From positions 17,222-81,221 of the forward strand of contig JBBQEJ010000001.1 of NCBI GenBank assembly GCA_038320555.1: a DNA stretch of 64,000 nt. Reading direction: 5' to 3'. Under the pieces are notes generated by a model. That model did no database searches and had not been told where the DNA came from. It saw only the letters and a program-made list of their open reading frames with translations. The translations under genes were made by a program, and so were the position numbers. Positions 3,352-60,181 of this stretch are shown piece after piece (position 1 is the stretch's first letter; each line of letters opens with the position of its first letter). This stretch comes from Vicinamibacterales bacterium (GTDB taxonomy: Bacteria; Acidobacteriota; Vicinamibacteria; Vicinamibacterales; 2-12-FULL-66-21).

Positions 3352-3362
3352 AAGTGGCCCCT

Positions 3363-3418
3363 GTTCGCGGCTCGCGGCTCCTGGTTCGCGGCTCGTGGTC
3401 CCCGCTCGCGGCTCGGCC
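3363..3418. repeat. phased heptamer array (GYTCGYG units) in the dxr-rseP spacer
   Basis: GTTCGCG GCTCGCG GCTCCTG GTTCGCG GCTCGTG read directly from the sequence, inside an operon. Confidence 0.8.
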
Positions 3419-5468: not shown

Positions 5469-5574
5469 GTAATCAGGGCTAGCGGGTGGCGGCTAGCGGC
5501 TTGCGACTGGCGGTTGGCGGCTAGCGGCTGGCAGTTAGCGGCTGGCAGTTGGCGGCTAGCGGCCAGGCGTGGCG
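5469..5574. repeat. intergenic repeat array with three copies of GGCGGCTAGCGGC plus CTGGCAGTT units
   Basis: The 13-mer sits at 5487, 5515 and 5550. Its reverse complement GCCGCTAGCCGCC recurs at 47856-47868 inside the BMC operon. Confidence 0.85.
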
Positions 5575-17020: not shown

Positions 17021-17671
17021 CTAAAACGTCGTGATCGGCATCCCTGCGCGGCACATCGGGCACTGTGACGCTTCGTAATTTTCCGGCGCCAGGTATTCCG
17101 CGAGCGCGTAATTCGGCACACCCAGGTCGACGATCGCTTCCATCCGATCGCAGATCTCGACGGTGCCAATCACGCGGCCGCCGGCCCCCGTCACGAGCTC
17201 GGCGCATTGCTGCAGCGTCTTCCCCGTGTTCCGCACATCGTCTGCAAGCAGCACGCGCTGGCCGGCCATCTGCCGCGCGTAGAAACGCCGGAGGATGAAC
17301 CCGTCGCCCGCGTTGGTGAAGGGAGCAAAGCTGCATGGCGGATGCGTGAGCGCGCGGCGGCCATCGAGCAGTCCGGCAAGCGTGTGCGCGAGCAGCGCGC
17401 CACCGGTTGCGGGTCCCGCGACGACGTCGGTCTCCGCGAGGAGCTCGCCCGGAATGACGTCGAGCAGATCCTGCGCGAGACGCCACATCGTCGATGGGTG
17501 CAGGAACAACTGGTGGGGATTCAGATACAAACGGCCGTGAAATCCGTTGCCGTAGTCGAAGTGCCCGTCGCGCATCAGGACCTCGAGCTCCTGCAGCGTG
17601 TTGAGGGCCTGGCGGCGAAGATCGTCCTGGCGTGTCACGTGGTATGGCCTCTTGTCAGACAGCAGCGGCAT
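17021..17671 (-). CDS. type I phosphoribosyltransferase, divergent PyrE-like paralog
   Basis: GHFDYGNGFHGRLYLN (compare GHFRLTSGLHSDRYLQ in pyrE), PRPP loop VLLADDVRNTGKT, and C-terminal CPMC (pyrE has CPLC). The ATG at 17671 overlaps the pyrC 3' end. Confidence 0.7.
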   Translation of the reverse strand: MPLLSDKRPYHVTRQDDLRRQALNTLQELEVLMRDGHFDYGNGFHGRLYLNPHQLFLHPSTMWRLAQDLLDVIPGELLAETDVVAGPATGGALLAHTLAGLLDGRRALTHPPCSFAPFTNAGDGFILRRFYARQMAGQRVLLADDVRNTGKTLQQCAELVTGAGGRVIGTVEICDRMEAIVDLGVPNYALAEYLAPENYEASQCPMCRAGMPITTF

Positions 17672-20591: not shown

Positions 20592-20621
20592 TAAAGAGTT
20601 CGGTTGATGATATCACACCGT

Positions 20622-20730
20622 TGCCAGTGGCCAGTTGCCGGTTGCCAGTTCCCAGTTGCCAGTTGCCAGTTGCCAGTTGCCAGTTGGCAGTTCCGGACTG
20701 AAAACTGAAAACTGGAAACTGGAAACTGAT
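20622..20730. repeat. phased heptamer arrays: GCCAGTT/CCAGTTG units, then CTGAAAA x2 and CTGGAAA x2
   Basis: Five perfect CCAGTTG units at about 20654-20688, flanked by variants, directly upstream of the pyrR leader. Confidence 0.9.
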
Positions 20731-30985: not shown

Positions 30986-33109
30986 CTACTCCTTCAATAG
31001 TCTGAGCGCATTCGCGATCACGATGAGCGACGCGCCCATGTCGGCGGCAACGGCCATCCACAGCGTGGCGGCGCCGGTGACGGCGAGGATCAGGAAGGCG
31101 CCCTTCAGGCCAATCGAGAAGGCGATGTTTCCGTGGATGTTGCGCGCGGTCGCGCGGCTCAGGCGCAGCGTGTAGGGAATCTTCGAGAGCTCATCGGCCA
31201 TGAGCGCCACGTCGGCGGTTTCGAGCGCCGCGTCGGTGCCGGCGACTCCCATCGCAATCCCCACATCGGCCGCGGCAAGGGCCGGCGCATCGTTCACGCC
31301 GTCGCCGACCATCGCGAGCGCGCCGTAGCGGGCGCGCAGCTCCTCGACAGCCGTGACTTTGTCTTCCGGTAACAACCCCGCGCGATGGCCGTCCAGATCC
31401 AGCGCCTCGGCCAGCGCCCGCGCCGGAGCTTCGTGATCCCCTGTCAGTAGGACCACGTGCTGAATGCCCTGCTTCCGGAGCAGGTCCACCGCATCGCGAG
31501 CGGCTTCGCGCGGTTCGTCGGCCACGCCAATCACGCCGACCGGCGTGCCTCCCGCCGCCACCATCACCGCGCTGGCTCCACGCGCCGCGAGCGTGTCGAG
31601 CGCGGCCTCCATCTCGGGCGAGCACAGCCCTCGCTCCTCGAACAACCGGTGACTGCCGACGACCAGGTTGTGTAATCCGAGTTGTGCCTCAGCGCCACGC
31701 CCCGGCAGCGCCTGGAACGCCTCGACCGCAACCGGCCGAATCCCGAGTGACGCCGCGTGCGAGACAATGGCGCGCCCGATCGGGTGTTCGGACCGCATTT
31801 CAAGCGATGCGGCAAACCGCAACACCTCTGCGGCCTCCACACCGGCGACGGGCAGCACGTCGATCACATGAAGCCGGCCGTGGGTGAGCGTCCCGGTCTT
31901 GTCGAACGCGACGCACCGGATCGTGGCCATCCTCTCGAGGTGCGCGCCGCCTTTGATGAGCACCCCTTTCCTCGCCGCGGCCGCGAGCGCCGACACGATC
32001 GACACGGGCGTCGAAATGACGAGGGCGCACGGACACGCGATCACGAGGAGCACGAGCGAGCGATAAAACCAGGTGGACCAGCTGGCATCGGTCAGGAGCG
32101 GGGCAGCCAGCGCGATGACGACTGCCAGCGCCAGCACGACCGGTGTGTAGATGCGCGCGAACCGATCGACGAACGCCTGGCTGGGCGCGCGCTGGGTCTG
32201 CGCGCGCTCCACGAGATGAATAATCCGCGCGAGCGTGGAATCGCGACGGAGCCGCGTGACAAGAACGTCGAGCGCGCCCCGGCCGTTGATGGTTCCGGCA
32301 AAGACTTCATCGCCCGGACCCTTCTCGATCGGCAGCGACTCGCCGGTCACGGGGGCCTGGTTCACGTAGCTGTCGCCCGCCGTCACGCGGCCGTCGAGCG
32401 GCAGCTTCTCGCCGGGACGCACGAGGATCGTGTCCCCGATCAGCACGTCGTCCACCGGGACGCGCGTGTCATGGCCATCGCGCCGGACGATCGCCTCGGA
32501 CGGCGCCAGATCCATGAGGGCGCTGATGGCGCCGCGCGCCCGATCCATCGCGCGCGCTTCCAGCAGCTGCGCGAGCGCAAACAGAAAGACGACCGACGCC
32601 GCCTCGGACCATTCACCGAGCAACATGGCGCCGCCGACGGCAATCACCATGAGCGCATTGATGTCGAGGATGCCGGAGCGGATCGAGACCAGCGCGCGGC
32701 GAGCGGTGAACACGCCGCCCAGGGTGATCGACAGCACGAAGGGAATCCAGGCGATCGAACCGGGCGCGCGCAGAAACGAACCGGCGAGGCCTGCCACAAA
32801 CGCCGCGCCCGACAGGACGAGCAGCCGCTGACGCGTGACGGCAGAGGCCGTGACCGGCGCGGGCTCCTCGTGCTCGAGCCATGCGCGCATCCCCGTTTGG
32901 GCGACCGCTTCCGCGATCGATCCCGCCGACAGCCTGGCTGCGTCGTACTTGATCCGAAGCCGCCGGCCAATAACGTCCGCATCGAGCGCTTCGAGCCCGG
33001 CCAGCCGGTTCAGGCGGTGCTCGAGGATCGCGACCTCCTCGTGACAGTCCATTCCCTCAATCTTGAAGGTTGATTCGGCGTGCAGCTCGCAGACCTGACA
33101 CGTGCTCAT
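30986..33109 (-). CDS. heavy-metal translocating P1B-type ATPase (Zn/Cd/Pb-like)
   Basis: N-terminal CQVC plus an HMA-like FKIEGMDCHEEV, CPC in TM6, DKTGTLT, GDGVNDAP, and ADMGAS (DxG) in the last TM. The ATG at 33109 makes an ATGA overlap with the arsR-like stop. Confidence 0.9.
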   Translation of the reverse strand: MSTCQVCELHAESTFKIEGMDCHEEVAILEHRLNRLAGLEALDADVIGRRLRIKYDAARLSAGSIAEAVAQTGMRAWLEHEEPAPVTASAVTRQRLLVLSGAAFVAGLAGSFLRAPGSIAWIPFVLSITLGGVFTARRALVSIRSGILDINALMVIAVGGAMLLGEWSEAASVVFLFALAQLLEARAMDRARGAISALMDLAPSEAIVRRDGHDTRVPVDDVLIGDTILVRPGEKLPLDGRVTAGDSYVNQAPVTGESLPIEKGPGDEVFAGTINGRGALDVLVTRLRRDSTLARIIHLVERAQTQRAPSQAFVDRFARIYTPVVLALAVVIALAAPLLTDASWSTWFYRSLVLLVIACPCALVISTPVSIVSALAAAARKGVLIKGGAHLERMATIRCVAFDKTGTLTHGRLHVIDVLPVAGVEAAEVLRFAASLEMRSEHPIGRAIVSHAASLGIRPVAVEAFQALPGRGAEAQLGLHNLVVGSHRLFEERGLCSPEMEAALDTLAARGASAVMVAAGGTPVGVIGVADEPREAARDAVDLLRKQGIQHVVLLTGDHEAPARALAEALDLDGHRAGLLPEDKVTAVEELRARYGALAMVGDGVNDAPALAAADVGIAMGVAGTDAALETADVALMADELSKIPYTLRLSRATARNIHGNIAFSIGLKGAFLILAVTGAATLWMAVAADMGASLIVIANALRLLKE

Positions 33110-33654
33110 CGCGGTTCGCGGTTCGCGATTCGCGGTTCGCGGTTCGTAGGTCCTGAATCGGGAGCTGACGCGTGTCGCGGTTCGCGATGTGCGGTTAGCC
33201 GCTCGCCCCTCGACGTTGCTCGGGGCGACCCTGAGCTTGTCGAAGGGTCGGGGACTGATGAGATGCGCGAATCGCCAATCGCGAATCGCGGCTCCTCCAC
33301 ATGGGTCAACGCCTGGTTGAGCAGCTCGAGAATGTGCTGATCGTCGACCGCGTAGTAGACCAGACGGCCCGCGCGGCGGGGGCGCACGAGACGCATGCCC
33401 CGCAGCAGCCGCAACTGGTGCGACGCCGCGGACTCGCTGATGCCGACGAGCGACGCGATGTCGCAGACGCAAAGCTCCCCTCCCGACAGCGCGTCGAGAA
33501 TCCGCACCCGTGTCGGATCTCCGAGGACGCGGAATGTCTCGGCAAGCGCTTCGACCGTACGCGCGCCCATCAGCAGGGGTTTTCGCGCCGCCGCCTGATG
33601 GGGACCCGCGCATTCGACGGTCGTGGTGGCGGGGCGTTCTTTGATTGTGGACAT
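33106..33654 (-). CDS. ArsR/SmtB-family metalloregulator with a repeat-encoded C-terminal tail
   Basis: LGDPTRVRILDAL...ELCVCDIASLVGISESAASHQLRLLR winged-helix core. There is no in-frame stop until 33106, so about 65 extra residues (ending NREPRIANREPR) are encoded by the repeat region. Confidence 0.75.
   Translation of the reverse strand: MSTIKERPATTTVECAGPHQAAARKPLLMGARTVEALAETFRVLGDPTRVRILDALSGGELCVCDIASLVGISESAASHQLRLLRGMRLVRPRRAGRLVYYAVDDQHILELLNQALTHVEEPRFAIGDSRISSVPDPSTSSGSPRATSRGERLTAHREPRHASAPDSGPTNREPRIANREPR
33110..33296. repeat. composite repeat region: GGTTCGC heptamers, an internal double hairpin, and inverted GAATCGC heptamers
   Basis: Heptamers run 33114-33162. Hairpins GCCCC(12)GGGGC and GACCCT(11)AGGGTC lie at 33205-33249. 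GAATCGC CAATCGC GAATCGC sits at 33269-33289, and CGCGATTCGCG (33124-33134) is the exact complement of 33280-33290. Confidence 0.85.
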
Positions 33655-45528: not shown

Positions 45529-46293
45529 CTACAGTGCCGCGTTACGGGCGCTCTTTTCAACCGCCACGTCAGCGGCGCTCTTTCCCACCCCCGCGCCACG
45601 AACGATCTTTCCCACCTTCGTGACGCCGATTCTCGGACAAACATCGGCGAGGACGCAAATTCCGCATAACGGGTACACCGGGCGGCACACGTTCTGTCCC
45701 CACGTCACGAGGTACAGATTGACGAGCGGCCACCATTTGCGGTGGACGGCCGCATACAGCGCGTGCTCGGTTTCATCGGGCGTGCGGGTCGCGACCCAGT
45801 CGAGGCGGTTGGAAATGCGGTGCACGTGCGTGTCGACGCAGATGTTATCCGCGCTGCGGTGCGCGAGAATCAGGACGAGGTTGGCGGTCTTGCGTCCGAC
45901 GCCAGGCAGCGTCAGCAGCTCCTCCATGGTCGCCGGCACGACGCCGCTGTAGCGCGACAGGATCTGCTCGCACGTGCGTTTCACGTGCACGGCTTTGTTC
46001 CGGTAGAAACTCACCGGATAGATCAGGCGCTCGATTGCTTTCACCCGCAGCGCCGCCATCGTGCGCGGCGTGCGTGCCACACGAAACAGCCGCGTAGATG
46101 CCGCGTGGGTGACAGCGTCCTTGGTCTGCGCCGACAGCATCGTCGCAATGAGGACCAGAAAGGGATCTTCCTGTTGATCCTCTGCGATTTTCTCGATCGC
46201 AGGTTCATCGAGCCCGTCGATCGCCTGCGCCAGCCGGCGCATCACCGCACGAATCCGTCCACGGGGAACGACCGGTTGCGGCGGGAGCGTCAT
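45529..46293 (-). CDS. nth: endonuclease III
   Basis: HhH motif LPGVGRKTANLVL, DTHVHRISNRL, and the Fe-S cluster CRPVYPLCGICVLADVC. ATGA overlap with the upstream dehydrogenase. Confidence 0.9.
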   Translation of the reverse strand: MTLPPQPVVPRGRIRAVMRRLAQAIDGLDEPAIEKIAEDQQEDPFLVLIATMLSAQTKDAVTHAASTRLFRVARTPRTMAALRVKAIERLIYPVSFYRNKAVHVKRTCEQILSRYSGVVPATMEELLTLPGVGRKTANLVLILAHRSADNICVDTHVHRISNRLDWVATRTPDETEHALYAAVHRKWWPLVNLYLVTWGQNVCRPVYPLCGICVLADVCPRIGVTKVGKIVRGAGVGKSAADVAVEKSARNAAL

Positions 46294-47210
46294 ACCGGGG
46301 TCAGCGGTGCCCTGCCCGACAGCACCTCAAGCACGTTTCTGACCGCAAGATCGGCCATCGCGGTCCGTGTTTCGCGTGTGGCGCTGCCGAGGTGCGGCGC
46401 AAGCACGACGTTGTCGAGCGTAAGGAGTCCTTGAGGGACGAACGGTTCCTTGTCGAAGACGTCGAGCGCGGCGCCCGCGATCATGTGCTCTTTCAGTGCC
46501 CAGACGAGCGCGTCTTCGTCGACGATCGAGCCCCGCGCGGTGTTCACGAGGAGCGCGGATCGTTTCATCCGCGCAAGCGTGCGGCGGCCGATCAGATGCC
46601 GGGTCTCCGGCGTGGCGGGCGTATGGATGGAAATCACGTCGGAGCTGACGAGCAGCTCGTCGAGCGACATGTCGTGCTTCGCAAAGACTGCCGTCATCCC
46701 GAACGCCGGCGCCTTTGCCGCCACCGCGCGACCGATCCGCCCCCGTCCGACAATACCCAGCTGCTTGCCACGAAGCTCCATCCCCAGCATGAAATCGAGC
46801 GCCCAACCCGTCCATCCGCCGCGGCGAATCAACCGATCGCCTTCCGCAATCCGCCTGGCGAGCGTGAGAATCAAGCCCCAGGTCAGCTCGGCCGTCGCCT
46901 CGGTCAGGACGTTGGGCGTGTTGGTCACCACTACGCCGCGCGTCTTGACGGCCGGCACGTCGATGTTGTCGTAGCCCACGGCAATGTTCGCGACGATCTT
47001 GAGCCCCGGCAGGCCCGCGTCCACCACAGCGCTGTCGATCCGATCCGTCAGGAGACAGATCAGTCCTTCCTTCCCCGCGATCCGTTCTTTCAGTTCCTCG
47101 ACCGAGAGCGGAGTCGGACCGTCGTGCAGATCGACATCGCAGGCCGATTCGAGGCGTGCAAATGCAGCGGACGGGATTCGGCGGGTCAGAAGAACGGAGG
47201 GTTTTTTCAC
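46290..47210 (-). CDS. D-isomer-specific 2-hydroxyacid dehydrogenase (glyoxylate/hydroxypyruvate reductase-like)
   Basis: GIVGRGRIGRAVA NAD motif, NTARGSIVDE and APHLGSAT. Confidence 0.85.
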   Translation of the reverse strand: MKKPSVLLTRRIPSAAFARLESACDVDLHDGPTPLSVEELKERIAGKEGLICLLTDRIDSAVVDAGLPGLKIVANIAVGYDNIDVPAVKTRGVVVTNTPNVLTEATAELTWGLILTLARRIAEGDRLIRRGGWTGWALDFMLGMELRGKQLGIVGRGRIGRAVAAKAPAFGMTAVFAKHDMSLDELLVSSDVISIHTPATPETRHLIGRRTLARMKRSALLVNTARGSIVDEDALVWALKEHMIAGAALDVFDKEPFVPQGLLTLDNVVLAPHLGSATRETRTAMADLAVRNVLEVLSGRAPLTPV

Positions 47211-47216
47211 AGCCTT

Positions 47217-47331
<115 letters not shown>

Positions 47332-47335
<4 letters not shown>

Positions 47336-47538
47336 TGTCCGTGCGATTCGCAGTAGCCGCAGTGATTGCACAGCACGTTGGGCTCGATCACGCAGGGACC
47401 GCCCGACGGCGGCAGCGCGTAGCGATAGTGGCTGGCGTGCTGCACGAGCACGGCAGGAACCTCGACCGTTTCCTCGCTTCCTGCCAGACGCCTGGCCACG
47501 GCCTCCCGTACCATCTGGCGCAGCATCTCCTCGTTCAT
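47332..47538 (-). CDS. 68-aa Cys-rich protein with an encapsulation-peptide-like N-terminus (BMC-associated)
   Basis: MNEEMLRQMVREAVARRLAG is an amphipathic helix. The C-terminus is C-x7-C-x2-C-x2-C-ESHGH. ATGA overlap with the upstream BMC-P gene. Confidence 0.55.
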
Positions 47539-47813
47539 ACGTCGTCCTTGTAATCGACCACGTCGACAATGCCGATCACCGCCGCGTCCACCGCCGCCGC
47601 CTTGCGTCCGAGCGCGTCGCCGGCTGCCTTCCCTTCGATGACGACCAGCACGCGCTCATCAACACCGGCTCCCACGGAGTCGATCGCGATCAACGCCACG
47701 CCGCGCGGCGTGCCCTCGAGCGTCAGCGGCTGCACGAGGAGCAGCTTCGCACCTTCGAGCTTCCGGTTCTTCTGTGTCGACACGACCGTGCCCACGACGC
47801 GACAAATCTGCAT
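47535..47813 (-). CDS. BMC vertex protein (BMC-P, EutN/CcmL family), paralog 3
   Basis: MQICRVVGTVVSTQK...AIDSVGAGVDERVLV...DAAVIGIVD is the canonical EutN pattern. Confidence 0.85.
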   Translation of the reverse strand: MQICRVVGTVVSTQKNRKLEGAKLLLVQPLTLEGTPRGVALIAIDSVGAGVDERVLVVIEGKAAGDALGRKAAAVDAAVIGIVDVVDYKDDV

Positions 47814-47887
47814 GCTTCAGTTGCCAGGTTCCAGTTACCGGTTTCCAGTTTTCCAGCCGCTAGCCGCCAGCCGCCAGCCGCTTTAGA
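47814..47887. repeat. CCAGTT-type units plus GCCGCTAGCCGCC in a BMC intra-operon spacer
   Basis: TTGCCAGGTTCCAGTTACCGGTTTCCAGTTTTCCAGCCGCTAGCCGCCAGCCGCCAGCCGC combines the motif families seen at 20622-20696 and 5487-5562. Confidence 0.85.
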
Positions 47888-48184
47888 TCAGCGACGGATT
47901 GGAAAATCGAGATCTGACCCCGCCAGATTCCAGTGATCGACGATCCCGACGATCGCGGCGTCGACTGGAGGCTCGGCGGGATAGAACGGAAACGCAGCCT
48001 CGCGGCCGCGAACGAAGAACACATGCTCGCCGGCGCCGGCGCCGACCGAGTCGACCGCCACGAGCGTGCGCCCTGCGCGCTCGCCGGTCGCGGCAATCGG
48101 CTGAAGCACGAGCAGCTTGGTGCTGACAAGGTTCACGTCCTTCACGCTCGCGACTACCTCGCCAATTACCCGGGCCAGCTGCAT
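47888..48184 (-). CDS. BMC vertex protein (BMC-P, EutN/CcmL family), paralog 2
   Basis: MQLARVIGEVVASVK...AVDSVGAGAGEHVF...DAAIVGIVD. Confidence 0.85.
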   Translation of the reverse strand: MQLARVIGEVVASVKDVNLVSTKLLVLQPIAATGERAGRTLVAVDSVGAGAGEHVFFVRGREAAFPFYPAEPPVDAAIVGIVDHWNLAGSDLDFPIRR

Positions 48185-48185
48185 G

Positions 48186-48464
48186 TCAGGAGTCGCCTTC
48201 CTTCACCTGGATCGTATCGACGATGCCGACGATGGCCGCATCGACCGGGCAGTCTTTCATGCCCGCCGCCATGCGGGCCGAGCTGCCGCTCACGATGAGC
48301 ACCGTCTCCCCGAAGCCGGCGTCCACCGTATCGACCGCGACCAGGTACGTCCCCTCCGGCTTGCCGTAGGGATCGACCGGACGCGCGATGAGCAGCTTGT
48401 TGCTGACGAGCCGCTCGTCCTTTCGCGTCGCGACGACAGTCCCCACGATCTTGGCGACGATCAT
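48186..48464 (-). CDS. BMC vertex protein (BMC-P, EutN/CcmL family), paralog 1
   Basis: [15 protein letters not shown]...[15 protein letters not shown]...DAAIVGIVD. Confidence 0.85.
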
Positions 48465-48754
48465 TTCGTGGTGGCGTTCGCCTTACCGATCGGGAGCGCG
48501 TCTTCGAGGTTGGCGTGCGGGCGCGGAATCACGTGCACCGACACCAGCTCGCCCACACGCCGTGCGGCGGCCGCCCCGGCGTCGGTCGCGGCCTTCACCG
48601 CGGCCACGTCGCCGCGCACGATCGCCGTCACGTACCCGGCGCCAATTTTTTCCCAGCCAACCAGCGTGACCTTCGCGGCCTTGACCATCGCGTCGGCCGC
48701 CTCGATCATCGCGACGAGACCCTTAGTCTCGACCATGCCGAGCGCCTCACCCAT
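48461..48754 (-). CDS. BMC shell hexamer protein (BMC-H, PduA/EutM-like)
   Basis: [27 protein letters not shown]...[11 protein letters not shown]...VHVIPRPH. Confidence 0.9.
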
Positions 48755-48831
48755 GCGTTGCCTCCTGCGCTTTCAGCTACCAGCTACCAGCCGCGAGCCG
48801 CCAGGGCTCTCTGCTAGCCGACAGCCGCTGA
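48755..48831. repeat. CAGCTAC/CAGCCGC-type repeat units in the aldolase to BMC-H spacer
   Basis: CAGCTACCAGCTACCAGCCGCGAGCCGCCAGGGCTCTCTGCTAGCCGACAGCCGCTG. Confidence 0.7.
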
Positions 48832-49686
48832 CTATTTCAGATGTTTGACCGCTTCCTCTATTAATGCCGTGAGCTCGCGGTATGTTAGCCGAATTTCGTC
48901 ATCCGCACCTATGGGACTCATCCGCCCGGGAACGAGGCGCTCGCCGCCGGCGGAAGGAGGCGCGAACAGGACCTGACAGTCCTCCGACGCACTCTCGGAC
49001 GCCGCAACGGGATCGGAGCAGATCGGCGCCGGCGCGGCGATGCCGTACCGGCCCCTGAGTCCCTGCAGGCGCATGACTTCGTCGCGTGAGAGCAACCGCT
49101 CGCCACCGAGCATCCGGGCGACAAAGCTGATGTTCGCGAAGTGCTCGATCGTCTCCATCTTGTAATACGCGGAGAACAAATCGGCGCCGAGCGTCAGCGC
49201 GCCGTGATTCGCGAGCAGCATGCCGTCGTGCGCCTTGACGTATTTGCGCACGGCCTCGGGCAGCTCCTTCGTTGACGGCGTGGCGTACTCCGCGATCGGC
49301 ACGCTCCCGAGCGTGGTCACGACTTCGGCAAGCACGGCACGATCGAGCGGGATTCCGGCAACCGCGAAGGCCGTCGCTACGGGCGGATGGGCGTGAACCA
49401 CCGCCTGAATCTCCGGGCGCTGTCGGTACACCTCGAGATGCATCTGCATCTCCGACGACGGGTTCCGCTCGCCGGCGAGCTTCCTGCCCTCGAGATCGGT
49501 AATGACCATCATCTGCTCGTTCATGAACCCTTTGCAGACGTTTGTGGGGGTCATGAGGAGCCGCTCGGCATCGAGCCGGACGCTGATATTGCCGTCGTTC
49601 GATGCCGTGTACCCGCGTGCGTACAGACGTCGGCCGACTTCGACGATATCGGTCCGGAGCTGGGATTCGAGGGGTGCCATCGCCAT
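48832..49686 (-). CDS. class II aldolase (fuculose/rhamnulose-phosphate aldolase-like) with a C-terminal extension
   Basis: SNDGNISVR, VVHAHPPVATAF and LANHGALTLG motifs. A low-complexity linker of about 60 aa ends in the amphipathic helix LTYRELTALIEEAVKHLK. Confidence 0.85.
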   Translation of the reverse strand: MAMAPLESQLRTDIVEVGRRLYARGYTASNDGNISVRLDAERLLMTPTNVCKGFMNEQMMVITDLEGRKLAGERNPSSEMQMHLEVYRQRPEIQAVVHAHPPVATAFAVAGIPLDRAVLAEVVTTLGSVPIAEYATPSTKELPEAVRKYVKAHDGMLLANHGALTLGADLFSAYYKMETIEHFANISFVARMLGGERLLSRDEVMRLQGLRGRYGIAAPAPICSDPVAASESASEDCQVLFAPPSAGGERLVPGRMSPIGADDEIRLTYRELTALIEEAVKHLK

Positions 49687-49828
49687 GTCTATGGAGAGAC
49701 GAAGATAACGGTTTTAACAACGAAGCAACGAAGTAATGGAGAAAAAACAAGATTGCTTTGGTTTTCTTCGTTCTTTCTCCGTTTACTTCGTTCCTTCGTT
49801 GTGAACCTCGTTCCCTTCGTCCCCTCCG
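49687..49828. repeat. CTTCGTT-family inverted-repeat element, copy A
   Basis: AACAACGAAGCAACGAAGTAATGGAGAAA ... TTTCTCCGTTTACTTCGTTCCTTCGTTGTGAAC are near-complementary arms of about 30 nt. CTTCGTTGTGAAC sits at 49794-49806. Confidence 0.85.
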
Positions 49829-50077
49829 TTATTTCCCGGACCATTCTCTCCTGCACTTCTCGGAACAAAAATGACGGGTCGCCGAACCCGTTCCGCTTGT
49901 CAGCGCCTGGCCGGGCACGACGAAGACCCCGCACACAGGATCGCGGACCAGGCCGACGCTGCGCTGGACCGATGGGTCGCGCGTGTAGCCCGCCCCCTCG
50001 ATCACACCACGCAGCAGCCGCGCCAGCGATCGCGCGAACAGAACAATCAGGACGGCCCAGAGGATCAGCTTCGCCAT
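49829..50077 (-). CDS. small membrane-anchored protein with a Cys-rich zinc-ribbon-like C-terminus
   Basis: MAKLILWAVLIVLFARSL anchor, then DPVCGVFVVPGQAL...HFCSEKCRREW. The family name (PP0621-like) is from memory only. Confidence 0.5.
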   Translation of the reverse strand: MAKLILWAVLIVLFARSLARLLRGVIEGAGYTRDPSVQRSVGLVRDPVCGVFVVPGQALTSGTGSATRHFCSEKCRREWSGK

Positions 50078-52327: not shown

Positions 52328-53677
52328 TCATCCCAGGTGTTCGCGTACGGCGCCGGCAATTTCGGCCGCCCACGCCTGAATCTGCTGTTGATCCTTCCCC
52401 TCGATCATCACGCGCAGCAGCGGTTCGGTGCCGGAATAGCGGACGAGCAGGCGGCCCTCGCCTGCGAGGCGGCTTTCCACGCGCGCCATTGCGTCCGCGA
52501 TCGACGGCACGGCCGCCAGCTCCTGCTTTTCGCGGACGCGCACGTTCACGAGCACCTGCGGATACGTCACGAGCTCGGAGGCGAGATCCGCCAGCTCGCG
52601 CCCGCTTTCAACCATCACGCGCAGGACGCTGAGGGCCGTCACGATGCCATCCCCCGTGAACAGGTGCTCGGAGAAGATGATATGCCCCGATTGCTCGCCG
52701 CCGATCGAGAGGTCGCGCTTGATCATCTCCTCCATGACGTACTTGTCGCCGACCGCGCATCGAACGAGATCGATGCGGCTGTCGCGAAGGGCAATCTCGA
52801 GGCCGATGTTGCTCATGACGGTGGCGACGACGGCATTTCCCTTCAGCCGGCCGCCCTGCTTCCAATGGCGGGCGCACATGAGCAGGACCGCGTCGCCGTC
52901 GACCACGCCGCCGTCGGCGTCGACAAAAATCGCCCTGTCGCCGTCGCCATCGAAAGCCACCCCCATGCGGCAGCTCAGAGCACGAACCGCCCTGGCGATC
53001 TGTTCCGGGTGCGTGGACCCGGAGTCGAGGTTGATGTTGCGGCCGTCGGGCGTCGCGCTCAGCACGTGAAGATCGCATCCCAGCTCGCGAAACAGCCGCG
53101 GCGCGACAGTCGTGGTGGCGCCGTTGGCCGTGTCGATCGCGAGCCTGAACGGGCCGAGCCGCCCGGCGTCCGGCAGCGCCAGCCGCGCGTGCGCGATGTA
53201 CGCGTCGATGACGTCGGTCCGATCGACCGGCACGTCGGAGGCGCCGCCCACCGACCAGGTCCGGTCGGCGATGATCGTTTCCACCTCGCGCTCGAGCGTT
53301 TCCGTGAACTTCTCCCCCTTCCCCGAGAAGACCTTGATGCCGTTGTCCTCGTATGGATTGTGCGAGGCCGAGATCACCAGGCCGGCATCGAAGCCCATTG
53401 CGCGCGTCACATAAGCGATTGCCGGCGTCGGGATGACCCCGGCACTCGTGATCTCCGCGCCGGCTGAGTGCACACCGCGCGCGAGCTCGCGCTCGATCCA
53501 TTCGCCCGATTCGCGCGTGTCGCGCCCGACCACAAATCGCAGCGGCCGACCCGGGGTGGTCGACCCGCCCATCGCGCGTACCAGCGCGCCGCCGAGGCGC
53601 GCCACCGTCTCGTGGTCGAGCGGATAGTCTCCCGCCTTTCCGCGGACGCCGTCGGTGCCAAACAGTCGATGGGCCAT
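52328..53677 (-). CDS. glmM: phosphoglucosamine mutase
   Basis: LFGTDGVRG, ISASHNPYEDNGIK and GDGDR motifs. Confidence 0.95.
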   Translation of the reverse strand: MAHRLFGTDGVRGKAGDYPLDHETVARLGGALVRAMGGSTTPGRPLRFVVGRDTRESGEWIERELARGVHSAGAEITSAGVIPTPAIAYVTRAMGFDAGLVISASHNPYEDNGIKVFSGKGEKFTETLEREVETIIADRTWSVGGASDVPVDRTDVIDAYIAHARLALPDAGRLGPFRLAIDTANGATTTVAPRLFRELGCDLHVLSATPDGRNINLDSGSTHPEQIARAVRALSCRMGVAFDGDGDRAIFVDADGGVVDGDAVLLMCARHWKQGGRLKGNAVVATVMSNIGLEIALRDSRIDLVRCAVGDKYVMEEMIKRDLSIGGEQSGHIIFSEHLFTGDGIVTALSVLRVMVESGRELADLASELVTYPQVLVNVRVREKQELAAVPSIADAMARVESRLAGEGRLLVRYSGTEPLLRVMIEGKDQQQIQAWAAEIAGAVREHLG

Positions 53678-53705: not shown

Positions 53706-54617
53706 CTACTTGATCGTCACGTCGACGACGGCGGGATCGATGGCGCTGACGCCGAAGGCTTGCGACGGGTCCACCTGGACGCGAAGATTGTATCGGCCGG
53801 GACCGAGGCCGGCAAGGTCCACGAACGCGTCAATGGCCCCCGCGCGGAGATCGGCTAACGCCTCCCGACGGCCGCGCACGGTCACGCGGGTCAGCGTGGG
53901 GCGGATCTGCGCGCTCAGCCCGGCGCCAAGACCGCGCCAGCGCACCGGCACGCCGGAGAGATCGCGCTCGACGGGCGCGGGAAGAACCTCGACCGTGATC
54001 GTCGCGTTCTGAGCCTGGACCAGCCGCACCGCGGAATCGGTGATCCCGACCGTGACCACGTCGTGCACGCGGGCACGCGTGCCCGTCACCTCAACCGGCT
54101 CCGTCGTCGCGCCCGTCAGTTGCCTCAAGCGGCTCTCGGGGCCCGCGACGTCGACCGTCGGCGGATCGGACGTGACACGGCCGATCACAAAGCCCGGCGC
54201 CGGCTCGCCGTCGAGCGCCGGAACGATCGGGACCGTGCGCCTCCCGGACTTCTCAAGATCGAGCGCGAGCGTGCCGGGCACGACCTGCGCGACGTCGACG
54301 CCGTACGGCGCGCGGACTTCGTCACTGCGCAGATGGAACATGCGCGAACCCGGGCGCGCGCTGCCGAGGTCCAGTACCGCGACGATGTCACGGGGCTCGA
54401 GGCGTCCCAGAAGCGCCGACGACCCGCGCAGCCGCACATCAACCGCGGTCGGCGGATCGCCGACGATCTCGAGCGACGGCGGGATGTTCCGGAACTCGAG
54501 CGGCACGCGCATGCTCCGCTCCACGAGGTGGTCCCCCGCGACGATCAGCCAGACCAGCGTCGCCAGCGCGAACGCCATCAGCTTGAGCCCGATATGACGG
54601 AATGGGTGATAGCGCAT
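53706..54617 (-). CDS. cdaR: YbbR-domain protein (CdaR-like regulator of the diadenylate cyclase)
   Basis: N-terminal anchor plus repeated YbbR-like beta modules. Its position between cdaA and glmM supports the call. Confidence 0.75.
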   Translation of the reverse strand: MRYHPFRHIGLKLMAFALATLVWLIVAGDHLVERSMRVPLEFRNIPPSLEIVGDPPTAVDVRLRGSSALLGRLEPRDIVAVLDLGSARPGSRMFHLRSDEVRAPYGVDVAQVVPGTLALDLEKSGRRTVPIVPALDGEPAPGFVIGRVTSDPPTVDVAGPESRLRQLTGATTEPVEVTGTRARVHDVVTVGITDSAVRLVQAQNATITVEVLPAPVERDLSGVPVRWRGLGAGLSAQIRPTLTRVTVRGRREALADLRAGAIDAFVDLAGLGPGRYNLRVQVDPSQAFGVSAIDPAVVDVTIK

Positions 54618-54618
54618 C

Positions 54619-54653
54619 CAATCCCTATTCCCTAATCGAATCGCGAATCGCTA
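54619..54653. repeat. five phased heptamers in the cdaA-cdaR spacer
   Basis: CAATCCC TATTCCC TAATCGA ATCGCGA ATCGCTA is the reverse-complement flavour of the GATTCG/TTAGGGA units at 47294-47328. Confidence 0.75.
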
Positions 54654-55466
54654 CACATCGTAGGCCCTCGACCCGATGCGCCTGCTCGCCTTGCGCGTTG
54701 TGACGAGGGACCGCAAGCGGCTGCGGAGATCGTCGGGGCTCAAGCCCCGCTCGATGCGGCCGTCGATCGCCAGCGAGATCTGCCCGGTCTCCTCGGACAC
54801 GATGACCGCGACGGCGTCCCCCTCCTCCGTCAGGCCGATGGCGGCGCGATGCCGCGTGCCGAGCTCGCGGCTCACGCGCGGGTTCACGGTCAGCGGAAGG
54901 AAGCAGGCCGCCGCCGCGACCCGGTTCTCCTGCAGGATCACCGCACCGTCGTGCAGCGCCGATCCCCGGTGAAAGATCGTGACGAGCAGATCGTAAGTCA
55001 GCGTCGCATCGAGCGGAATCCCACTCTCGATGTAATTGCGCAGGCCAATCTCCCGCTCGACCGCCACAATCGCTCCCACCTTGTGCGCGGACAGCATCGT
55101 GGCGGCCACGACGATCTCTTCGATGGTTTCGTCGGCCGCTTCCTGCCTGTAGAAATAGCGGAAAAATGGCGCCTGGCCGAAATGCGCGAGGGCGCGACGG
55201 ATGTCCGACTGGAAGATCACGATTGCGGCAAACGCAACGTAGACAAGCATGTTGCGGATCAGCCAGTTCACGGTCTGCAGCGGAGCGAGCCGCGACACGT
55301 AGAACAGCGCGACGATGATGAGGGAACCGACGCCCATCTGGACAGCGCGCGTGCCCCTGATGAGCAGCAGGAACTCATAGATCAGGAAGGCGACGATCGC
55401 GATGTCGAGCAGATCCCACCAGCCCACCGGCGGCCGGCGCAGGACGCTGGCAAGATAGTCCATCAT
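54651..55466 (-). CDS. cdaA: diadenylate cyclase (membrane-bound, CdaA type)
   Basis: Three N-terminal TM segments, with HDGAVIL, LGTRHRAA and VSEETG DAC-domain motifs. Confidence 0.9.
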   Translation of the reverse strand: MMDYLASVLRRPPVGWWDLLDIAIVAFLIYEFLLLIRGTRAVQMGVGSLIIVALFYVSRLAPLQTVNWLIRNMLVYVAFAAIVIFQSDIRRALAHFGQAPFFRYFYRQEAADETIEEIVVAATMLSAHKVGAIVAVEREIGLRNYIESGIPLDATLTYDLLVTIFHRGSALHDGAVILQENRVAAAACFLPLTVNPRVSRELGTRHRAAIGLTEEGDAVAVIVSEETGQISLAIDGRIERGLSPDDLRSRLRSLVTTRKASRRIGSRAYDV

Positions 55467-60104: not shown

Positions 60105-60181
60105 TGGTGGCGGTGCAGGGACTTGAACCCCGGACAACGCGGATATGAGCCGCGTGCTCTAACCAGCTGAGCTACACCGCC
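60105..60181 (-). tRNA. tRNA with CAU anticodon (elongator Met or Ile2; not initiator-like)
   Basis: Hand-folded 77-nt cloverleaf. Acceptor GGCGGUG/CACCGCC, D arm GCUC/GAGC, anticodon stem CGCGG/CCGCG with loop CUCAUAU, T arm CGGGG-UUCAAGU-CCCUG, and an encoded CCA. Confidence 0.85.

Follow-up and report, generated by a model that had tools for sequence, protein, structure and literature searches.

The ACI type of bacterial microcompartment (BMC) was catalogued by Sutter, Melnicki, Schulz, Woyke and Kerfeld (2021, Nat Commun 12:3809; PMC8217296, Supplementary Data 2) and comprises 125 loci, all of them from Acidobacteria, chiefly subdivisions 4 and 6 (PMC8217296). Its main locus specifies a PF00596 aldolase with a C-terminal encapsulation peptide (EP) and a PF00389/PF02826 dehydrogenase (PMC8217296); its shell genes are one BMC-H gene, whose product has a PRPH motif, and an adjacent triplet of BMC-P genes from three clades (PMC8217296, Supplementary Data 2). 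A small protein of ~80 aa that bears an EP at its N-terminus and has a conserved set of three cysteines is also described (PMC8217296, Supplementary Data 2), and three unknown proteins are mentioned, one of which has three conserved histidines (PMC8217296). The aldehyde dehydrogenase (AldDh) of the system, which bears an EP near its C-terminus, consistently lies on a satellite, not on the main locus; this satellite AldDh occurs in 'most' ACI genomes, not in all, PduS/PduT satellites are occasional, and ACI is always the sole BMC type in its genome (PMC8217296, Supplementary Data 2). The present analysis concerns a BMC locus on the minus strand (47332–49686) of a 64-kb stretch of DNA (positions 17,222–81,221 of contig JBBQEJ010000001.1; hereafter, the window), which is of this already catalogued type.

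Three other types resemble ACI in part. The ACI aldolase is nearer to those of the HO and MIC3 types than to that of the PVM (Planctomycetes-Verrucomicrobia) type, and the ACI AldDh is most like that of MIC3 (PMC8217296). HO loci also have a BMC-P triplet, and HO type I has a satellite with an aldolase and BMC-P (PMC8217296); compared by description only, however, HO and MIC3 differ from ACI in having AldDh in the main locus, in the presence of BMC-T, and in occurring in other phyla (Myxobacteria and others). The PVM type shares with the locus studied here a class II aldolase as the signature enzyme, a BMC-P triplet, and a proposed conversion of a ketose-1-phosphate into dihydroxyacetone phosphate (DHAP) and a sequestered aldehyde. 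Its main locus, in contrast, also contains an AldDh (PvmJ), a phosphotransacylase (PTAC; PvmB) and an acetate kinase (PvmG), none of which is part of the locus here, while it lacks the hydroxyacid dehydrogenase and the Cys-rich miniprotein; moreover, its hosts are Planctomycetes and Verrucomicrobia.

The six minus-strand open reading frames (ORFs) proposed in an initial annotation, made from the letters alone, were all recovered at their coordinates, and the Pfam families found agreed with the identification of five of them as genes for a class II aldolase, one BMC-H and three BMC-P paralogs, the sixth encoding a 68-aa protein. When the 2-hydroxyacid dehydrogenase gene at 46290–47210 is counted in, the window thus matches the catalogued content of an ACI main locus. 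The features in common are an acidobacterial host, an EP-tagged PF00596 aldolase, a PF00389/PF02826 dehydrogenase, three adjacent BMC-P genes, a BMC-H with the PRPH motif, a short EP-bearing Cys protein, and a main locus devoid of AldDh and PTAC; nothing substantive differs from the ACI description. The host assignment is indirect: the 80 best related loci all belong to Acidobacteriota/Vicinamibacterales and the synteny of the flanks is kept, while no rRNA marker was found in the 64-kb window. In our view, an ACI-type microcompartment very probably has its main locus here, in a genome of the Vicinamibacterales (Acidobacteriota subdivision 6). It is neither a new minimal organelle, nor a satellite, nor an aldolase-only locus. 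The initial annotation had offered a choice between a satellite and a minimal organelle, which was misframed since the catalogue has this gene set as the main locus and AldDh on the satellite (PMC8217296). It had also stated that its claim to novelty would fall if the same gene content were already listed as a described BMC type, which is the case (PMC8217296).

The signature enzyme is a class II (FucA-like, Zn-dependent) aldolase of 284 aa (48832..49686, minus strand; PF00596, E 3e-50). Among solved structures, L-fuculose-phosphate aldolases are the closest (4c24, 5e-28), and the motifs for metal binding and catalysis, PSSE, HAHP and NHG, are intact and invariant in relatives. The initial annotation had noted a C-terminal extension of roughly 60 aa ending in an amphipathic helix. 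The extension and its terminal helix are present, but its length is ~75 aa, because the match to the solved FucA structures, which corresponds to the catalytic core, spans residues 8–209. The extension ends in the EP (residues 264–284, EIRLTYRELTALIEEAVKHLK; 48835..48897, minus strand), a conserved helix located behind a variable linker. Across 75 relatives, a conserved stretch (LRGxYGIxxPAPIC ... CQxVxAP) is followed by a linker of variable length and sequence, and then by a nearly invariant helix, EIRLTYxELxALIExAxxxLK. No other 15-mer of the protein is as amphipathic as this helix, whose helical hydrophobic moment (0.63) is the highest. AlphaFold2 (AF2) placed a coil and then a terminal helix at residues 269–281 with low confidence; the model was poor (mean predicted local distance difference test score, pLDDT, 59) and was therefore used only for this coil-then-helix pattern. 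Two cysteines of the extension, C223 (in PAPIC) and C237 (in DCQ), were invariant among 30 homologues.

Upstream of the 68-aa gene lie the four shell genes, all on the minus strand. The BMC-H hexamer protein (97 aa; 48461..48754; PF00936, E 3e-30) contains the motif VIPRPH, scores 144 bits against the EutM model of NCBIfam, above its cut-off of 133, and shows a mean identity of 97% across 78 relatives. Its inter-hexamer lysine motif, invariant in 79 sequences, reads KAAK instead of the usual KAAN, a minor deviation from the ACI description. BMC-P paralog 1 (92 aa; 48186..48464; PF03319, E 2e-31), the gene for which overlaps that of BMC-H by 4 nt, is present in 78/80 related loci; it is followed by paralog 2 (98 aa; 47888..48184; PF03319, E 7e-27) and paralog 3 (92 aa; 47535..47813; PF03319, E 2e-28). 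With pairwise identities of 43–47%, these adjacent genes are distinct, true paralogs. As judged from their sequences, one BMC-H and three BMC-P paralogs are on hand for building a shell. The initial annotation was right in seeing here a resemblance to the shell and cargo signature of PVM loci. From the aldolase and BMC-P triplet common to both, the locus might be taken for a satellite fragment, with a complete PVM-like fucose/rhamnose metabolosome encoded elsewhere in the genome; however, the taxon is Acidobacteriota rather than Planctomycetes or Verrucomicrobia, and the locus itself supplies the whole set of four structural shell genes that a closed shell requires, which makes this reading very improbable.

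The 68-aa Cys/His-rich protein (47332..47538, minus strand) has an EP-like helix (MNEEMLRQMVREAVARRL) at its N-terminus and a C-x7-C-x2-C-x2-C/His module at its C-terminus, the two being joined by a variable linker. Its gene overlaps that of BMC-P3 by 4 nt (ATGA), a coupling that the initial annotation had already reported. No Pfam or NCBIfam family matched the protein; its 170 database homologues are all unannotated or hypothetical, and the sole taxon-labelled one is from Acidobacteriota. In the family, the module reads PCxIEPxVxCNHCGYCxSHGH, with C49, C57, C60, C63, H37, H59, H66 and H68 invariant in 46 sequences. The N-terminal helix (MNEExLRxMVREAVARRL) was modelled by AF2 at residues 3–18 with a pLDDT of about 90, while the C-terminal half was of low confidence and too uncertain for a fold search. 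In one relative (L019, 12161–12325), the 68-aa gene loses the Cys module by an apparent frameshift, which may be an assembly error or reflect a pseudogene. The helices at the C-terminus of the aldolase and at the N-terminus of the 68-aa protein have a common pattern, LxxM/L-V/I-xEAV, from which we infer that both could bind the same shell partner.

A second small protein, of 82 aa (49829..50077, minus strand), is a possible member of the locus. Its N-terminal helix is hydrophobic, its C-terminal domain contains just three conserved cysteines (RDPVCG...YFCSxxCR), and it shows weak, sub-threshold likeness to the PP0621 family, YHS and DUF7576. Its gene is kept in 77/80 loci, and in most relatives it directly abuts that of the aldolase.

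The dehydrogenase is a D-2-hydroxyacid dehydrogenase of the glyoxylate/hydroxypyruvate reductase type (306 aa; 46290..47210, minus strand; PF02826 and PF00389), encoded 121 nt downstream of the 68-aa gene on the same strand. It scores 325 bits against the NCBIfam glyoxylate reductase model, below the cut-off, and aligns end to end with 2CUK, the glycerate dehydrogenase/glyoxylate reductase of Thermus (2e-78). Since it has no terminal extension, no targeting signal is visible. The gene was treated in the initial annotation as an unrelated neighbour; yet it is a listed ACI component, co-directional with the operon and found in most relatives (64 of the 80 related loci, most misses being due to contig ends), so that the term 'aldolase-only' was wrong. 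In the 172-kb related contig L081, for which independent gene calls exist, the same operon is present and the genes for the 68-aa protein, the dehydrogenase, nth and a cyclophilin (peptidyl-prolyl isomerase) are coupled by 4-nt overlaps. In the window, at 45529–47210, the dehydrogenase stop codon is part of a 4-nt overlap (ATGA) with nth, the gene for endonuclease III, and this DNA-repair gene seems to share a transcript with the microcompartment operon.

The absence of the usual metabolosome core was analysed over the whole window. Prediction by codon-position GC gave 52 genes, and those of at least 150 aa were scanned against Pfam, except for the end-truncated ORF at 1–843. No PF00171, PF06130 or PF00871 domain was found among the window ORFs of at least 150 aa, nor any further PF00936 or PF03319. 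When the shell proteins were compared by phmmer with the six-frame translation of the window, the four known shell genes were recovered and no others. An EutE probe, validated as PF00171 (113 bits), rendered no AldDh in the 64-kb window by tblastn. Pfam scans, phmmer and tblastn thus bear out the earlier statement that AldDh, PduL, acetate kinase and BMC-T are absent from the window, and the AldDh, PduL-type PTAC and acetate kinase that stand beside the shell genes in PVM-type loci were not found there. No AldDh was detected either in the flanks of the 80 related loci, which extended to at most 10 kb on each side, in agreement with the catalogue (PMC8217296). This absence from window and flanks, together with the catalogue's observation that a satellite AldDh occurs in 'most' ACI genomes and not in all (PMC8217296), could be read as indicating a self-sufficient minimal organelle, in which the aldolase (together with the miniprotein) is the sole cargo, no dedicated AldDh exists, and the aldehyde passes to non-canonical partners such as the adjacent dehydrogenase. 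However, the absence of AldDh covers the window and the locus flanks only, and the dehydrogenase has no targeting extension and is dispensable in six relatives; we regard this explanation as improbable and retain that of an ACI main locus.

To compare the locus with those of relatives, one genome per GTDB species was scanned with the aldolase, which gave 431 confirmed relatives, the best 80 of which were used for comparison of the loci. These 80 all came from metagenome-assembled genomes of Acidobacteriota/Vicinamibacterales, with aldolase identities of 73–91%; in a protein search with the aldolase, the matches listed all showed at least 78% identity. The tblastn comparison of the 80 loci rendered a common gene order: glmM, pdxJ, hydrolase, TPR protein, 82-aa protein, aldolase, BMC-H, P1, P2, P3, 68-aa protein, dehydrogenase, nth and cyclophilin. 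The initial annotation had proposed looking for orthologous loci of the same content, and the same order was indeed seen among these best 80. The aldolase and BMC-H were found in all 80, the BMC-P genes in 77–78, and the 68-aa gene in 70. In every gene, identity to the relatives was 83–98% at codon positions 1 and 2 versus 50–63% at position 3 (aldolase, 92% vs 56%), and the genes of the locus are evidently under strong purifying selection. The incomplete metabolosome core, the repeats inserted in intergenic gaps and the disrupted 68-aa gene of L019 might raise the suspicion that the locus is a microcompartment remnant, decaying or no longer functional; against this, all ORFs are intact, BMC-H shows 98% identity at codon positions 1 and 2 versus 63% at position 3, and the gene order is kept in about 70–80 species-level genomes. 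Such a remnant is therefore extremely unlikely.

Several points weigh against the assignment as an ACI main locus, or against parts of it. The assignment was made by comparing gene content and Pfam domains with the catalogue's description, whereas shell-protein clades are assigned by the catalogue's hidden Markov models or trees; it remains, even so, very likely. Two small unknown proteins are evident here (68 and 82 aa), whereas the catalogue mentions three, and how these two correspond to its small-protein descriptions is ambiguous. The 68-aa protein fits the catalogue's short Cys protein, which bears its EP at the N-terminus (PMC8217296), although it has four invariant Cys in this lineage where the catalogue gives 'three conserved'; the length and Cys count of the 82-aa protein also suit the '~80 aa, three conserved cysteines' description (PMC8217296). 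For the catalogue's separate three-His protein there is no distinct candidate gene here, and the 68-aa protein itself has four invariant His. The substrate class of the aldolase is also less than firm: its NCBIfam scores are all far below the cut-offs, and the model of OtnC-like 3-oxo-tetronate-4-phosphate decarboxylases scores slightly above that of FucA (148 versus 129 bits). The dehydrogenase is missing in six related loci (L015, L022–L025 and L067), in which the 68-aa gene is directly followed by nth; it is thus not obligatory in all Vicinamibacterales. Synteny reaches housekeeping genes on both sides (glmM, pdxJ and nth), and since these flanks are equally syntenic, adjacency is weak evidence of a functional link for the dehydrogenase and the 82-aa protein; for membership of the dehydrogenase, the wider sample of the catalogue is a better argument than local adjacency. 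The satellite AldDh of the source genome is assumed from the catalogue (PMC8217296), not seen. Finally, there is no experiment on any ACI component, and literature searches rendered no functional ACI study after 2021.

If the locus is an ACI main locus, a working scheme can be outlined. The two helices would direct the aldolase and the 68-aa miniprotein into the lumen, where, by analogy with PVM/GRM5, the aldolase would split a ketose-1-phosphate (fuculose- or rhamnulose-1-phosphate-like), yielding DHAP and a reactive aldehyde. The latter would be consumed, likewise within the shell, by an AldDh that bears an EP and is specified by a satellite locus elsewhere, as in the catalogue. The dehydrogenase has no targeting extension; its role is probably to convert a product that is a hydroxy- or oxo-acid, or to recycle NAD(P)H. 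The Cys/His miniprotein would bind a metal or an Fe-S centre. Metal or disulfide chemistry of the cargo is hinted at by C223 and C237 of the aldolase extension, taken together with the four invariant Cys of the 68-aa protein. Going further, the EP-tagged 68-aa protein might be an encapsulated Fe-S or metal carrier, perhaps acting with the Cys of the aldolase extension, in which case ACI would be a redox- or metal-dependent compartment with a chemistry unlike that of the canonical aldehyde-oxidising metabolosome and, in some lineages, without a dedicated AldDh; this proposal is speculative and, in our judgement, rather unlikely.

The gaps of the operon contain repeats, which are another minor difference from the ACI description, repeat hairpins being found in two intergenic gaps. 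The gap upstream of the aldolase start is filled by a long, stable hairpin of inverted arrays of AACGAAG-like heptamers (140 nt; 49687..49828, minus strand), with inverted arms of 39 nt and a minimum free energy of –67.3 kcal/mol (z –9.8). It ends 6 nt before the aldolase ATG, and no Shine-Dalgarno sequence is evident. No Rfam family was found upstream of or within the operon; the only matches were sub-threshold ones to microRNA hairpins, those to plant microRNAs being explained by the length of the hairpin. The hairpin is absent in relatives, or other repeats stand in its place, and a riboswitch was rejected because of this lack of conservation; it is probably a variable repeat element and not a conserved regulator. 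Between the genes for the 68-aa protein and the dehydrogenase (47217..47330, unstranded) lie direct heptanucleotide tandem arrays, with GTTCGCG repeated ~11 times and then GATTAGG. Arrays of this kind, each with a different unit (TCGCGGC, GGCTGGC, GTTGCCA, GTTCGCG and others), occur in the window at 3354–3415, 5477–5563, 20620–20729, 33109–33146, 47217–47330 and 47818–47881; they are mostly intergenic, that at 33109–33146 lying inside a P-type ATPase ORF. In related Vicinamibacterales, the same gaps either hold arrays built from other units, frequently in inverted pairs that could fold into hairpins, or do not exist. We take this as a sign that the repeats form a class that evolves rapidly and is found throughout the lineage, presumably comparable to the STRR heptamer repeats of cyanobacteria.

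The other genes of the window that were scanned against Pfam are of the housekeeping kind (cdaA-ybbR-glmM, pdxJ, folP, ftsH, pyrB/C, dxr, uppS, nth, cyclophilin and others). Upstream of the locus and on the same strand lies a conserved string of cdaA (cyclic di-AMP cyclase), ybbR/cdaR and glmM (53706–55466 and 52328–53677), and a tRNA gene is located at 60108–60181.

These results indicate that the window holds one more clean example of an ACI locus, not a new kind of organelle. The detail added to the catalogued type consists of two conserved targeting helices, a four-Cys motif, a dehydrogenase that is optional, and repeat hairpins within the operon. In metagenomes, thousands of aldolase clusters are found, a count that includes class II aldolases other than those of ACI. 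The remaining interest lies in the biochemistry of ACI compartments generally, above all in the EP-tagged Cys/His miniprotein. The Vicinamibacterales are abundant soil bacteria, and ACI compartments seem to belong to their stable core genome.

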